A stretch of 14,443 bases of DNA from Dendronephthya gigantea (lineage: Eukaryota): the NCBI RefSeq assembly GCF_004324835.1, contig NW_021163311.1, forward strand, positions 138,208 through 152,650. Reading direction: 5' to 3'. Each line of letters begins with the position of its first letter. Within the stretch, counting starts at the first letter, position 1. The translations under genes were made by a program, and so were the position numbers. A model generated the notes under the pieces. The model made no database searches. It had not been told where the DNA came from and was given only the letters and a program-made list of their open reading frames with translations. This document shows, piece by piece, positions 715 to 14,443 of this stretch.

Positions 715-770
715 ATGGCCAACCATTCTGTCAGCTCTGCAGAGAGTTGGGTCAATTTTCGTTCCAACAC
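715..770 (-). CDS. EIF2S3: eIF2 gamma exon 11: (G)[18 protein letters not shown]
   Basis: Acceptor ataaaccag, consensus donor GTAAGT; matches human [19 protein letters not shown]; phase 1 in, 0 out. Confidence 0.85.
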
Positions 771-1080
771 CTGGTTTATAATGAAGATAAATGATTATGA
801 AATGCTGCTTTTTACATGTTTTAAATGCAATGGAAATTTGATCAGATATCCCCCAATGCTCGAGTTGTCTGACACAAAAGGTCTACATGTGTCTTGGGTA
901 AAGTTTGACAGATCTTTCTGCAAAGAGTTGGGTCAATTTTCGTTCCAACAACTAGCTTAAAATGAAGATAAATGGAATATGAAATGCAGTTTTTCACATG
1001 GTTTAAATGGAATGAAAAGTTTGATGAAATATCCCTGATACAAAAGACATGTTTCTTGGGTAAAGTTTGATGGATATTCT
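738..1080. repeat. Tandem duplication (about 180-bp segment, 1.9 copies) spanning start of exon 11 and most of the upstream intron
   Basis: Segment 738-918 realigns with 919-1080 (shared strings agagttgggtcaattttcgttccaaca, aatgaagataaatg, cttgggtaaagtttga). Confidence 0.75.
921..953 (-). pseudogene. Degenerate duplicated copy of the 5' part of eIF2gamma exon 11 ([12 protein letters not shown]) inside the exon10-exon11 intron
   Basis: gcaaagagttgggtcaattttcgttccaaca is repeated from 738-768; the acceptor is changed from ccag|GT to ctag|TT and there is no downstream donor or matching continuation. Confidence 0.6.
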
Positions 1081-2257: not shown

Positions 2258-2302
2258 CTGGAATAAAGATTGAAGAATACAGTTATGTACATGCCATAAA
2301 AC

Positions 2303-3597
2303 TGTCACTTGTCAACTCTCATGCAACTCTTGTTCTGGTTTGATCAAGCAATGATAGTTGATGAAACTCTCATGTAAACTCTCACTTGTCAACTCTCATG
2401 CAACTCTTGTTCTCGTTTGATCAAGCAATGATAGTTGATGAAACTCTCATGTAAACTCTCGCTTGTCAACTCTCATGCAACTCTTTTCTCGTTTGATCAA
2501 GCAATGATAGTTGATGAAACTCCCATGTAAACTCTCGCTTGTCAACTCTCATGCAAGTCTTGTTCTTATTTGATCAAGCAATGATAGTTGATGAAACTCT
2601 CATATAAACTCTCGCTTGTCAACTCTCATGCAACTCTTGTTCTCGTTTGATCAAGCAATGATACTTGATGAAACTCTCATGTAAACTCTCGCTTGTCAAC
2701 TCTCATGCAACTCTTGTTCTCGTTTGATCAAGCAATGATAGTTGATGAAACTCCATGTAAACTCTCGCTTGTCAACTCTCATGCAACTCTTGTTCTCGTT
2801 TGATCAAGCAATGATAGTTGATGAAACTCTCATGTAAACTCTCGCTTGTCAACTCTCATACAACTCTTGTTCTCGTTTGATCAAGCAATGATAGTTGATG
2901 AAACTCCCATGTAAACTCTCGCTTGTCAACTCTCATGCAACTCTTGTTCTCGTTTGATCAAGCAATGATAGTTGATGAAACTCCCATGTAAACTCTCGCT
3001 TGTCAACTCTCATGCAACTCTTGTTCTCGTTTGATCAAGCAATGATAGTTGATGAAACTCCCATGTAAACTCTCGCTTGTCAACTCTCATGCAACTCTTG
3101 TTCTCGTTTGATCAAGCAATGATAGTTGATGAAACTCTCATGTAAACTCTCACTTGTCAACTCTCATGCAACTCTTGTTCTCGTTTGATCAAGCAATGAT
3201 AGTTGATGAAACTCCCATGTAAACTCTCGCTTGTCAACTCTCATGCAACTCTTGTTCTCGTTTGATCAAGCAATGATAGTTGATGAAACTCTCATGTAAA
3301 CTCTCACTTGTCAACTCTCATGCAACTCTTGTTCTCGTTTGATCAAGCAATGATAGTTGATGAAACTCCCATGTAAACTCTCGCTTGTCAACTCTCATGC
3401 AACTCTTGTTCTCGTTTGATCAAGCAATGATAGTTGATGAAACTCTCATGTAAACTCTCGCTTGTCAACTCTCATGCAACTCTTGTTCTCGTTTGATCAA
3501 GCAATAATAGTTGATGAAACTCTCATGTAAACTCTCACTTATCAACTCTCATGCAACTCTTGTTCTCGTTTGATCAAGCAATGATAGTTGATGAAAC
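2303..3597. repeat. 77-bp satellite array, about 17 units, occupying nearly all of eIF2gamma intron 6 (2258-3639)
   Basis: Unit tgatcaagcaatgatagttgatgaaactctcatgtaaactctcgcttgtcaactctcatgcaactcttgttctcgtt; period 76-77 measured at 2341, 2418, 2494, 2571. Confidence 0.95.
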
Positions 3598-5450: not shown

Positions 5451-5610
5451 CATTAGCTTGCAATGCACCCAGATGTGGCCTACTTTAGTATTTTACTCTG
5501 TCTAATGTCAGATGATTTTACTCATCAGTGGAAGAGTACTGTCAGTTAATAAGTTAACAAAACTATCTGTCAGTGTCTCTTGTTAACCCATTAGCTTGCA
5601 ATGCACCCAG
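5451..5610 (+). repeat. 138-bp repeat family, copy A (about 1.15 units) in eIF2gamma intron 1
   Basis: Unit gttaacccattagcttgcaatgcacccagatgtg...actcatcagtggaagagtactgtcagttaataagttaacaaaactatctgtcagtgtctctt. Confidence 0.85.
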
Positions 5611-6119: not shown

Positions 6120-6478
6120 TCTGTAACTGGAGTGATCACGAGAGATGCACTGAGGGATAAACAACACTGGAGTGATAAAAGAGCACCCACTGAGAGACAA
6201 GTGTAACTGGAGTGATCACAGAAGATACACTGAGAGATAAGTATAACTGGAGTGATCACAGAAGACGCACTGAGAGATAAACATACTGGAGTGATAACAA
6301 AAGACGCCCTGAGAGATAAGCACAACTGGAGTGACTACAGAAGACGCACTGAGAGATAAGTATAACTGGAGTGACTACAGCCAGACGCACTGAGAGATAA
6401 TTATAACTGGAGTGATAAAGAAGACACACTGAGAGATAAAGCATTACTGGAGTGATCAAGTGTAAGCATTACTGAAAA
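6120..6478. repeat. 40-bp minisatellite (about 9 units), 140 bp upstream of the eIF2gamma start codon
   Basis: Unit actggagtgatcacagaagacgcactgagagataagtata; actgg recurs at 6126, 6166, 6206, 6246. Confidence 0.9.
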
Positions 6479-8041: not shown

Positions 8042-8420
8042 CTTAGGGCGTGTTTATATGATCCCGTCTAGCCGGGACGGGATGTTTTCATCCCGCTTAG
8101 CCGGGAAACTCGCCTACGCGGATGGCGTGTTTATATGGAGTTCATTTTGTGGTGCAGGTTCCTTCGACGGCATGTTTTATTGTAGAAAACGAGTATGCCA
8201 ATATATACACATGCTCCTAATGTATGTTAATCGCGAATCATCTCGGCCAAGCGGGGATGGAGTGTTTATATGGCAATTTCTCGTCCTGTCTAAGCGGGAT
8301 CCCGGCAAGAAGTGCCGAAGAAAAGTGGTCATATAAACACTAATTAGCGTTTGTACTACAAGCGGGATCTCGGAAACTGTCCCGTCCCGGCTAGACGGGA
8401 TCATATAAACAGGCCCTAAG
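8042..8420. mobile_element. MITE (379 bp) with 41-bp terminal inverted repeats and subterminal gtgtttatatg / cccgcttagccggga motifs
   Basis: Left end cttagggcgtgtttatatgatcccgtctagccgggacggga against right end tcccgtcccggctagacgggatcatataaacaggccctaag (1 mismatch); no unambiguous TSD. Confidence 0.8.
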
Positions 8421-8650: not shown

Positions 8651-8690
8651 CTAGAAGTTTCAAATAGTTCGGATATTGTTACCAAATTTA

Positions 8691-9250
8691 GCTCCATCAG
8701 TTCTAAACTGTTCTTCCTAGAGGTCCAGTAAGGATCATCTCTTATTGATCCAGTGTTACTACAGGAGGAAACCTAAACTAAACTAACTTTATTTATACTG
8801 GATAGCTCTATAGTTCTAAACTGTTCTTTCTAGAGATCCAGTAAGGATCATCTCTTATTGACCCAGTGTTGCTACAGGAGGAAACCTAAACTAAACTAAC
8901 TTTATTTATACTGGATAGCTCTATCAGTTCTAAACTGTTCTTCCTAGAGGTCCAGGAGGGATCATCTCTTATTGATCCAGTGTTACTACAGGAGGAAACC
9001 TAAACTAAACTAACTTTATTTATACTGGATAGCTCTATCAGTTCTAAACTGTTCTTCCTAGAGGTCCAGTAAGGATCATCTCTTATTGATCCAGTGTTAC
9101 TACAGGAGGAAACCTAAACTAAACTAACTTTATTTATACTGGATAACTCTATCAGTTCTGAACTGTTCCTCCTAGAGGTCCAGTAAGGATCATCTCTTAT
9201 TGATCCAGTGTTACTACAGGAGGAAACCTAAACTATATTTATATTGGATG
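8691..9250 (+). repeat. 114-bp satellite family, cluster 3 (about 4.9 units) in last intron of the signal-peptide gene
   Basis: Five tandem units with minor variants (113-114 bp). Confidence 0.9.
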
Positions 9251-9464: not shown

Positions 9465-9885
9465 GCCCTGGTCAAACGAGAATGATAGTTGATGAGAGTT
9501 GAGAAGCGAGAGTTTGCACGAGAGTTTTCCAAACTCTCGATGCGCCGGTCAAACGAGAATGAGAGTTGAGAACGAGAGTTGATTACGGCGCGCATTAATT
9601 TCGTCCTTACTCCACTTCGTTTTGCTTTTTTTGTTTCTGCCCGTTGTTTTCAGAAGATTTCTTTTTTTTTTCAAAAAAATTGCAAACCGCTAGCTGTTTT
9701 GCAACTCTCATCAACTCTCATGACCGATCAAACGCGCCCAAACTCTCATCAACTCTCATCAAAATTTGAACCAGTTCAAAGTCAATGAGAGTTGATGAGA
9801 GTGCACGAGAGTGTATGAGAGTTCGCGGTCAAACGCAAGCGAGAGTTGCAACTCTCATCAACTCTCATTCTCGTTTGACCAGGGC
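9465..9885. mobile_element. MITE (421 bp) with about 40-bp TIR GCCCTGGTCAAACGAGAATGA.AGTTGATGAGAGTTG, flanked by TTAA on both sides (9461-9464 and 9886-9889); lies in intron 3 of signal-peptide gene
   Basis: Left cTTAAgccctggtcaaacgagaatgatagttgatgagagttg; right caactctcatcaactctcattctcgtttgaccagggcTTAAa; internal ctctcatcaactctcat subrepeats; TTAA duplication is piggyBac-like. Confidence 0.8.
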
Positions 9886-10276: not shown

Positions 10277-10352
10277 GGTCCTCCGGCAGAAATCGAACCT
10301 ATGCTTTTGCGATGCCGGTGCAATGCTCTTGCCACTGAGCTACAGAGGTAGC
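10277..10352 (-). ncRNA. tRNA-like Pol III element (degenerate tRNA or SINE head) with A box TAGCTCAGTGG and B box GGTTCGATT
   Basis: Minus strand acctctgtaGCTCagtggcaaGAGCattgcaccggcatcgcaaaagcataGGTTCGATTtctgccggaggacc; resembles tRNA-Ala but acceptor and T stems do not pair. Confidence 0.45.
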
Positions 10353-10841: not shown

Positions 10842-10896
10842 CTGAGAATTAATACAACAGCATTGTGAGCAATAAATTATTTATTAAATGTTAAAG

Positions 10897-11140
10897 TAGG
10901 TCACATCTGGGTGCATTGCAAGCTAATGGGTTAACAAGAGACACTGACAGATAGTTTTGTTAACTTATTAACTGACAGTACTCTTCCACTGATGAGTAAA
11001 ATCATCTGGCATTAGACAGAGTAAAATACTAAAGTAGATCACATCTGGGTGCATTGCAAGCTAATGGTTATCACAGATAGTTTTGTTTACTTGGTAATGA
11101 CAATGATCAAGTGGTGAGTAAAATCATCTGGCTGATGGAA
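10897..11140 (-). repeat. 138-bp repeat family, copy B (reverse orientation, about 1.7 units) in intron 1 of the signal-peptide gene
   Basis: Reverse complement of the unit: aggtcacatctgggtgcattgcaagctaatgggttaacaagagacactgacag... Confidence 0.85.
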
Positions 11141-13223: not shown

Positions 13224-13410
13224 GTAAGTCGATGAAAATGTATATTTAATTATGTATATATTTCACGTTTTAGTGTTTACTCGAAGTCATATGGCGATTG
13301 AGTGATTAATTAAAACGAATTCCCGTTTTTATGTAATTCTTCAATGTTCACTTGGCTATATTTTGCTAAAAAAAACGACACCAACAATAATTTTACTCAT
13401 GGGAAGAGTT

Positions 13411-13720
13411 GTTAACCCATTAGCTTGCAATGCACCCAGATGTGACCTATTTAAGTATTTTACTCTGTCTAATGTCAGATGATTTTACTCATCAGTGGAA
13501 GAATACTGTCAGTTAATAAGTTAACAAAACTATCTGTCAGTGTCTCTTGTTAACCCATTAGCTTGCAATGCACCCAGATGTGACCTATTTAAGTATTTTA
13601 CTCTGTCTAATGTCAGATGATTTTACTCATCAGTGGAAGAGTACTGTCAGTTAATAAGTTAACAAAACTATCTGTCAGTGTCTCTTGTTAACCCATTAGC
13701 TTGCAATGCACCCAGATGTG
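13411..13720 (+). repeat. 138-bp repeat family, copy C (2.25 tandem units) in ferredoxin intron 1
   Basis: gttaaccc recurs at 13411, 13549, 13687 (period 138). Confidence 0.9.
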
Positions 13721-14157: not shown

Positions 14158-14159
14158 GT

Positions 14160-14443
14160 AAGAGATGATCCTTACTGGACCTCTAGGAAGAACAGTTTAG
14201 AACTGATAGAACTATCCAGTATAAATAAAGTTAGTTTAGTTTAGGTTTCCTCCTGTAGTAACATTGGATCAATAAGAGATGATCCTTACTGGAACTCTAG
14301 GAAGAACAGTTAAGAACTGATAGAGTTATCCAGTATAAATAAAGTTAGTTTAGTTTAGTTTCCTCCTGTAGTAACACTGGATCAATAAGAGAAGATCCTT
14401 ACTGGACCTCTAGGAAGAACAGTTTAGAATGATAAGAGCTATC
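14160..14443 (-). repeat. 114-bp satellite family, cluster 4 (reverse-complement orientation, 2.5 units or more, truncated by window end) starting 2 bp after ferredoxin exon 3 donor
   Basis: Plus strand reads agagatgatccttactggacctctaggaagaacagtttagaactgatag..., the reverse complement of the unit. Confidence 0.9.

Follow-up and report, generated by a model that had tools for sequence, protein, structure and literature searches.

Tandem duplication of an intron 10/exon 11 boundary in the eIF2gamma gene of Dendronephthya gigantea

Tandem duplications that lie inside genes and interact with splice sites are a described class of event, treated in passages of a review (PMC3443670) and of a further article (PMC4974935), both of which cite Gao & Lynch 2009. 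The duplication analyzed here, in the translation initiation factor gene eIF2gamma of Dendronephthya gigantea, is a new instance of this known type, in which a tandem duplication within a gene crosses a splice site and is taken up by the intron. Like the intragenic tandem duplications that carry a splice site, it is short, head-to-tail and confined to one gene; its copies are adjacent and collinear, and the duplicated unit includes an intron–exon boundary. In both cases the spliceosome is offered a choice, one option of which leaves the mRNA unchanged and the extra copy intronic, the outcome that the sequence predicts for this locus. Unlike the tandem duplications that create introns, this one appears to have lengthened an existing intron, from roughly 130–150 nt to 313 nt, without adding a new one.

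The closest functional analogue that we found is intron 7 of human F7, which contains a 37-bp minisatellite whose first unit spans the exon 7/intron 7 boundary, and in which the pseudo-donors are functional in principle and normally silent (PMC1557585). Both loci hold copies of a splice site together with exon sequence within an intron. In F7, however, the 5′ splice site is repeated in 6–9 identical copies and the repeat is polymorphic, whereas here a 3′ splice site was duplicated once and the copies have diverged by 12%. The same topology as at our locus, with the 3′ part of an intron and the 5′ part of the next exon in tandem, is found in a pathogenic BRCA1 duplication that comprises 395 bp of intron 9 and 1617 bp of exon 10; the cDNA keeps the duplicated parts and is frameshifted (PMC11839443). 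Duplications of this kind are therefore not automatically harmless. In BRCA1 the duplicated exon part is retained together with the intron piece, whereas a productive eIF2gamma mRNA must skip the upstream copy, which has evidently been tolerated for a long time. Mutually exclusive exons share with this locus the local duplication of exon sequence along with its acceptor; unlike them, the present duplication copied 35 of the 56 nt of the exon and no consensus donor, and its reading frame is broken by a stop codon at 844–842.

The window, that is, the whole stretch of DNA that was analyzed, comprises 14,443 nt of contig NW_021163311.1. Its minus strand carries the 5′ three-quarters of the eIF2gamma (EIF2S3) gene in 12 coding exons, numbered from the ATG exon. 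The gene model was built by hand on the reverse complement and checked by script for GT–AG introns and an open frame. The exons are listed below in window coordinates; a slash within a motif marks the splice boundary.

5991–5938, minus strand: exon 1 (gene model)
5413–5350, minus strand: exon 2 (gene model)
5169–5108, minus strand: exon 3 (gene model)
4718–4653, minus strand: exon 4 (gene model)
3962–3841, minus strand: exon 5 (gene model)
3734–3640, minus strand: exon 6 (gene model)
2257–2099, minus strand: exon 7 (gene model)
1833–1699, minus strand: exon 8 (gene model)
1558–1464, minus strand: exon 9 (gene model)
1228–1084, minus strand: exon 10, ending in ...AVPGGLI plus the first base of a Gly codon (...CTAATTG) and followed by the donor G/GTAAGA
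770–715, minus strand: exon 11, 56 nt, followed by the donor CAT/GTAAGT (gene model and protein alignment)
633–520, minus strand: exon 12 (gene model and protein alignment)

All 11 introns were GT–AG, with lengths of 81–1382 nt, and beyond exon 12 the gene continues outside the window, past its left end. The exons encode 389 residues of eIF2gamma, of which residues 4–389 (386 residues) aligned without gaps to human EIF2S3 (E 9e-215); the corresponding value for yeast eIF2gamma was 6e-190. Pfam detected a GTP_EFTU domain at residues 36–239 (E 1.5e-25) and GTP_EFTU_D2 (domain II) at residues 271–353 (E 6.7e-10). The eIF2gamma homologues found all possessed domain III (eIF2_C, PF09173), and the window ends before that part of the gene. 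Exon 11 corresponds to residues 334–352, at the end of domain II. The best protein matches, at 93% identity, were intronless transcript contigs (ENA ERZ1738539; Logan ERR150034xx), whose identity over the CDS was only 80–83%, followed by proteins of anthozoans (86–87%) and of a scorpion and amphioxus (85–86%); the protein search with eIF2gamma did not find a protein of the same species. The last codon of exon 11 (715–717, minus strand) encodes His, as in the relative P0002, where human and the anthozoans have Gln in the segment ADRMVG[Q/H]VLG. Another protein, P0001 (an EukProt Trinity transcript from a different organism), is an eIF2gamma in which a stretch of about 143 residues (PISAQMKY...TLCRADR) occurs twice as an internal direct repeat, inflating its bit score. 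The ends of this repeat do not match the exon boundaries of the present gene model, and it is therefore probably an assembly artefact.

Intron 10 (1083–771, minus strand, 313 nt, phase 1) and the start of exon 11 contain two abutting copies of one unit, arranged head-to-tail on the same strand and collinear with each other. The features of this region are as follows.

1078–917, minus strand: copy B, upstream in the gene, 162 nt, from intron position +6 to the end of the pseudo-exon
952–953, minus strand: upstream pseudo-acceptor AG in the context cattttaagctAG/TTGTTGG, with the pyrimidine tract tttatcttcatt kept
951–917, minus strand: pseudo-exon fragment, a 35-nt copy of the exon 11 start (TTGTTGGAACGAAAATTGACCCAACTCTTTGCAGA)
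916–736, minus strand: copy A, downstream in the gene, 181 nt, in which the remaining intron and the functional acceptor lead into the first 35 nt of the real exon 11
771–772, minus strand: functional acceptor AG, ataaaccAG/GTGTTGG, of which CAG/GTGTTGG is common to three anthozoan orthologues

In each copy a branch/pyrimidine region precedes an acceptor AG, after which comes the 35-nt start of exon 11; no 5′ splice site lies within the unit. In the order of the gene, the donor GTAAGA is followed in copy B by the intron body, tttatcttcattttaagctAG and then TTGTTGGAACGAAAATTGACCCAACTCTTTGCAGA; copy A continues with its own intron body, tttatcttcattataaaccAG and GTGTTGGAACGAAAATTGACCCAACTCTCTGCAGA, after which come GCTGACAGAATGGTTGGCCAT and the donor GTAAGT. 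The pseudo-exon differs from the real exon 11 at 2 of 35 positions, namely G to T at +1 and CTC/CTT at a Leu codon. The exonic 26-mer GTTGGAACGAAAATTGACCCAACTCT occurred exactly twice (743–768 and 924–949, minus strand), with 0 occurrences expected in 200 shuffles. An exact 26-mer search of JGI metagenome contigs gave no match. Only the downstream copy runs on into ADRMVGH, the GTAAGT donor and a frame that aligns to human EIF2S3 and to the transcripts of relatives.

A repeat search resolved the similarity between the copies into three ungapped blocks in a single order: 736–793/917–974 (91% identity), 793–839/975–1021 (83%) and 885–916/1047–1078 (88%), at offsets of 181, 182 and 162, respectively. 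MAFFT alignment of copies A and B gave 160 aligned positions with 19 mismatches (141/160 identical, 88.1%) and 23 gap columns in 4 indels, and the intron body of copy A contains additional stretches of 4 nt and 17 nt relative to copy B. Self-blastn matched the two copies with E = 3e-37 and detected no further copies of the 181-nt unit in the window. The pair is missing from the TRF output (minimum score 30), probably because there are fewer than two copies and these differ by a 17-nt indel. Folding of the intron 10 RNA revealed no unusual structure (z = +0.56), an Rfam search found no family in the intron 10 region, and the plus-strand ORFs were not credible and were dismissed as antisense noise.

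The original prediction, made from the letters and their open reading frames, had described tandem copies of a segment of about 180 bp across the acceptor of exon 11 of eIF2gamma. The two abutting copies are confirmed, and with them a true tandem duplication that crosses the boundary of intron 10 and exon 11. Non-collinearity of the two segments, which had been named as grounds for rejecting the claim, was checked and not found, the three blocks lying in one order. The label also holds, the exon being the 11th coding exon of the gene model, as do the readings of the functional copy (ccag/GT ... ADRMVGH/GTAAGT) and of the upstream copy (ctag/TT, diverging after CR). The coordinates needed adjustment: the repeat had been placed at 738–1080 and measures 736–1078, and the pseudo-exon, given as 921–953, lies 2 nt away at 951–917 (35 nt; 951–919 for 33 nt). 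We do not claim that the pseudo-exon is an in-frame 33-nt cassette in which GAAAGA (921–916) represents a mutated GTAAGA donor; the alignment at this breakpoint is ambiguous, with 4 of 8 positions matching beyond 917.

The orthologous loci of Nematostella vectensis, Desmophyllum pertusum and Exaiptasia diaphana, which are distant relatives with about 87% protein identity, were compared with this region. All three share the structure of exons 9–12, including a phase-1 intron between LIG and VGT, which measures 463 nt in Nematostella, 209 nt in Desmophyllum and 84 nt in Exaiptasia. No second copy of exon 11 and no pseudo-exon was present at these three loci, each of which has exon 11 once. The comparison indicates that intron 10 itself is ancient and that the duplication is a case of intron lengthening, not of intron gain. 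Gain of the intron through a duplicated exon segment containing AGGT (the Rogers model) was rejected on the same grounds, the phase-1 intron being already present in the three anthozoan orthologues.

The K2P distance between copies A and B was 0.13. With 12% of the aligned sites different and four indels in addition, the duplication is not recent, contrary to what had been proposed. The pseudo-exon carries 2 mismatches in 35 nt, compared with 2.4 expected under a model with an unchanging real exon and a copy drifting at half the divergence of the intron (17/125). Divergence of the exonic and intronic parts between the copies did not differ significantly (Fisher P = 0.25). The divergence of the pseudo-exon fits neutral drift and gives no sign of constraint.

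Drawing on the observed duplication and its limits, the gene model, the absence from the three orthologues and the neutral-like divergence, we consider it highly probable that an old tandem duplication over the junction of intron 10 and exon 11, which the three anthozoans examined lack, left an extra copy that now persists as a drifting intronic relic. The ancestral intron 10 would have been about half as long as the present one. A local tandem duplication of approximately 165–180 nt, beginning near intron position +6 and ending at base 35 of exon 11, would have produced the arrangement donor – (intron + 35 nt of exon 11) – (intron + exon 11). Splicing from the donor at 1083 to the acceptor at 772–771 would excise the entire extra copy, leave the mRNA unchanged and restore the protein sequence ...PGGLIG/exon 11/VLGAAD..., as in human eIF2gamma and in the transcripts of relatives. 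Such an event would be tolerable in an essential gene because the duplicated block has a full 3′ splice region and no 5′ splice site. From then on the extra copy would have evolved as ordinary intron sequence, acquiring the substitutions and indels that now distinguish it from its twin.

Protein conservation points to the downstream acceptor (772–771) as the one in use. The upstream acceptor had been thought to be neutralized at the splice site; however, its AG is intact, and TAG acceptors serve 5 of the 11 introns of this gene (before exons 2, 3, 5, 6 and 10), AAG serves 2 of 11, and exon 9 has T at +1. In a leave-one-out analysis with a PWM, a tiny and crude one trained on the gene's own 11 acceptors, the pseudo-acceptor scored 9.3 and the real exon 11 acceptor 5.9, with the authentic sites spanning −3.3 to 11.1. 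Branch-like motifs (TTCAT/TTTAT) and a pyrimidine stretch are kept in both copies, and use of the pseudo-acceptor would define a 130-nt intron, inside the range of intron lengths of the gene. Three of the 19 mismatches between the copies fall at −5, −3 and +1 of the acceptor, a concentration with a nominal P of 0.025 that is matched by a second cluster of equal size at 909–914. Since the three orthologues read CAG/GTGTTGG and an invariant Gly codon has the +1 G as its second base, it was the pseudo-copy that acquired a T at +1. The G at +1 and the C at −3 thus appear to be ancestral, and the T at −3 also probably arose in the pseudo-copy. The two changes, C to T at −3 and G to T at +1, lead away from the CAG/G consensus, yet they leave a normal-looking TAG acceptor. 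The site was weakened at most; the term "weakened" is defensible, and the site is not visibly disabled.

Use of the upstream acceptor would add 181 nt to the mRNA and bring in a TGA stop codon at 844–842 (minus strand) after 36 codons. The same stop would end translation if intron 10 were retained, and it lies 127 nt before the exon 11 donor. As the original prediction held, the upstream copy has no usable donor: after the pseudo-exon there are the poor GT sites TCT/GTCAAA, CAT/GTAGAC, TTT/GTGTCA and TGT/GTCAGA, and the only decent one, CAT/GTAAAA at 815, would leave an intron of 44 nt. The replacement of Gly by Val that had been foreseen on use of the pseudo-exon is likewise borne out by the codon G/TT, whereas the proposed truncation of the G domain is not. 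The G domain occupies residues 36–239 and exon 11 encodes residues 334–352; judging from the predicted protein, the product would lack domain III entirely and about one strand from the end of domain II. The upstream copy cannot encode the conserved protein. In mammals, the exon-junction rule for transcript decay is established. With a stop codon 127 nt before the exon 11 donor, a transcript spliced to the upstream acceptor would, by this rule, be a decay substrate in silico. The upstream acceptor is thus presumably mostly silent, or gives only a decay-prone by-product. Some use of it may occur, judging from its competent-looking TAG, pyrimidine tract, PWM score and 130-nt intron.

These same properties are compatible with a regulatory role. 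According to this alternative, the upstream acceptor is a functional "poison" 3′ splice site to which part of the pre-mRNA is spliced at 951, with NMD tuning the output of eIF2gamma. An intact acceptor with a score on a par with those of the gene's authentic sites, the pyrimidine tract and branch-like motifs that copy B has kept, and the predicted position of the stop codon 127 nt upstream of the next exon junction would all suit such a role. Against it, the pseudo-exon has diverged as neutral sequence would, both changes at consensus positions weaken the site and neither strengthens it, and the absence of the element from the three orthologues means that it is not a conserved regulatory feature. 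We regard this alternative as quite unlikely. That the upstream TAG acceptor is used appreciably, perhaps in a regulated manner, so that the lineage acquired by duplication a degraded eIF2gamma variant tuning its dosage, seems to us very unlikely. Alternatively, the two copies could be mutually exclusive or alternative-first-part versions of exon 11 that arose by tandem exon duplication and yield two isoforms, in keeping with the near identity of the first 11 codons and the AG before each copy. However, the upstream copy lacks the last 21 nt of exon 11 as well as a donor, its frame closes after 36 codons with a tail unmatched in any of the eIF2gamma sequences compared, the GT sites in frame (TCT/GTCAAA and TGT/GTCAGA) are poor, and joining either of them to the real exon would repeat 10 residues within a conserved beta-barrel. 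We give the two-isoform explanation hardly any credence.

The remaining alternatives concern the origin of the second copy. The locus is represented by a single assembly window, in a region full of tandem arrays that are hard to assemble, and the duplication might thus reflect collapsed or expanded haplotypes, a mis-joined read or a segregating copy-number polymorphism. Artefactual copies would be near-identical, however, whereas these differ by 19 substitutions and four indels, one of 17 nt. Such divergence implies long independent evolution of both copies on one chromosome, which makes a young polymorphism unlikely and an old one possible; taken together, an artefact or polymorphism is quite unlikely. 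Delivery of the extra copy by a mobile element with a captured exon fragment, which the MITE-like and satellite-like repeats of the window might bring to mind, appears extremely unlikely: the copies abut in register, the unit corresponds exactly to the local intron and exon start, no terminal inverted repeats were detected (0 inverted pairs within 400–1500), and the window contains no more copies.

As an old duplication absorbed into intron 10, the locus has little import beyond annotation; it offers a clean natural example of a tolerated 3′ splice site duplication in an essential gene. Gene predictors and spliced aligners could be misled into calling a truncated eIF2gamma by the near-perfect exon start and the intact TAG acceptor of the upstream copy. 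Given RNA-seq data, the locus would also serve as a modest natural test of how splicing chooses between two almost identical 3′ splice regions that lie 181 nt from each other. If the upstream acceptor did act as a poison site, a simple tandem duplication would have given this lineage an unproductive splice variant through which the dosage of eIF2gamma, an essential initiation factor, is tuned.

Other local tandem arrays, with units of 40–138 nt, crowd the window and suggest that this stretch of the genome readily undergoes such duplications. Units of 40–180 nt have evidently been duplicated in tandem often here, and the intron 10 duplication is notable only for straddling an exon boundary. A 77-nt satellite (16.9 copies, 97% alike, 2299–3597) makes up most of intron 6 (1382 nt), and a diverged inverted piece of it lies at 9469–9515. 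Arrays of a 114-nt unit (94–99% alike) are located in intron 12 (247–474), in intron 7 (1872–2076) and upstream of the gene (8689–9235 and 14159–14443); the last of these is inverted, and the unit represents a dispersed satellite-like or mobile repeat family. A 138-nt unit (96–100% alike) is found in intron 1 (5451–5610) and upstream of the gene (10891–11130 and 13409–13720), with one copy inverted. Just 5′ of the ATG exon, in what is likely the 5′ UTR or promoter region, a 40-nt minisatellite (6124–6456) comprises about 8 copies that are 79–87% alike. Farther upstream, a MITE-like element at 8042–8420 has 48-nt terminal inverted repeats (8042–8089 and 8373–8420) that are 92% complementary and 283 nt apart. 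A tRNA-like sequence at 10277–10349 on the minus strand was called tRNA-Ala(GGC) by ARAGORN, and its Rfam score of 36 bits exceeds the gathering score of 29; a genuine tRNA gene, a pseudogene and the leading part of a tRNA-derived repeat are all conceivable identities.
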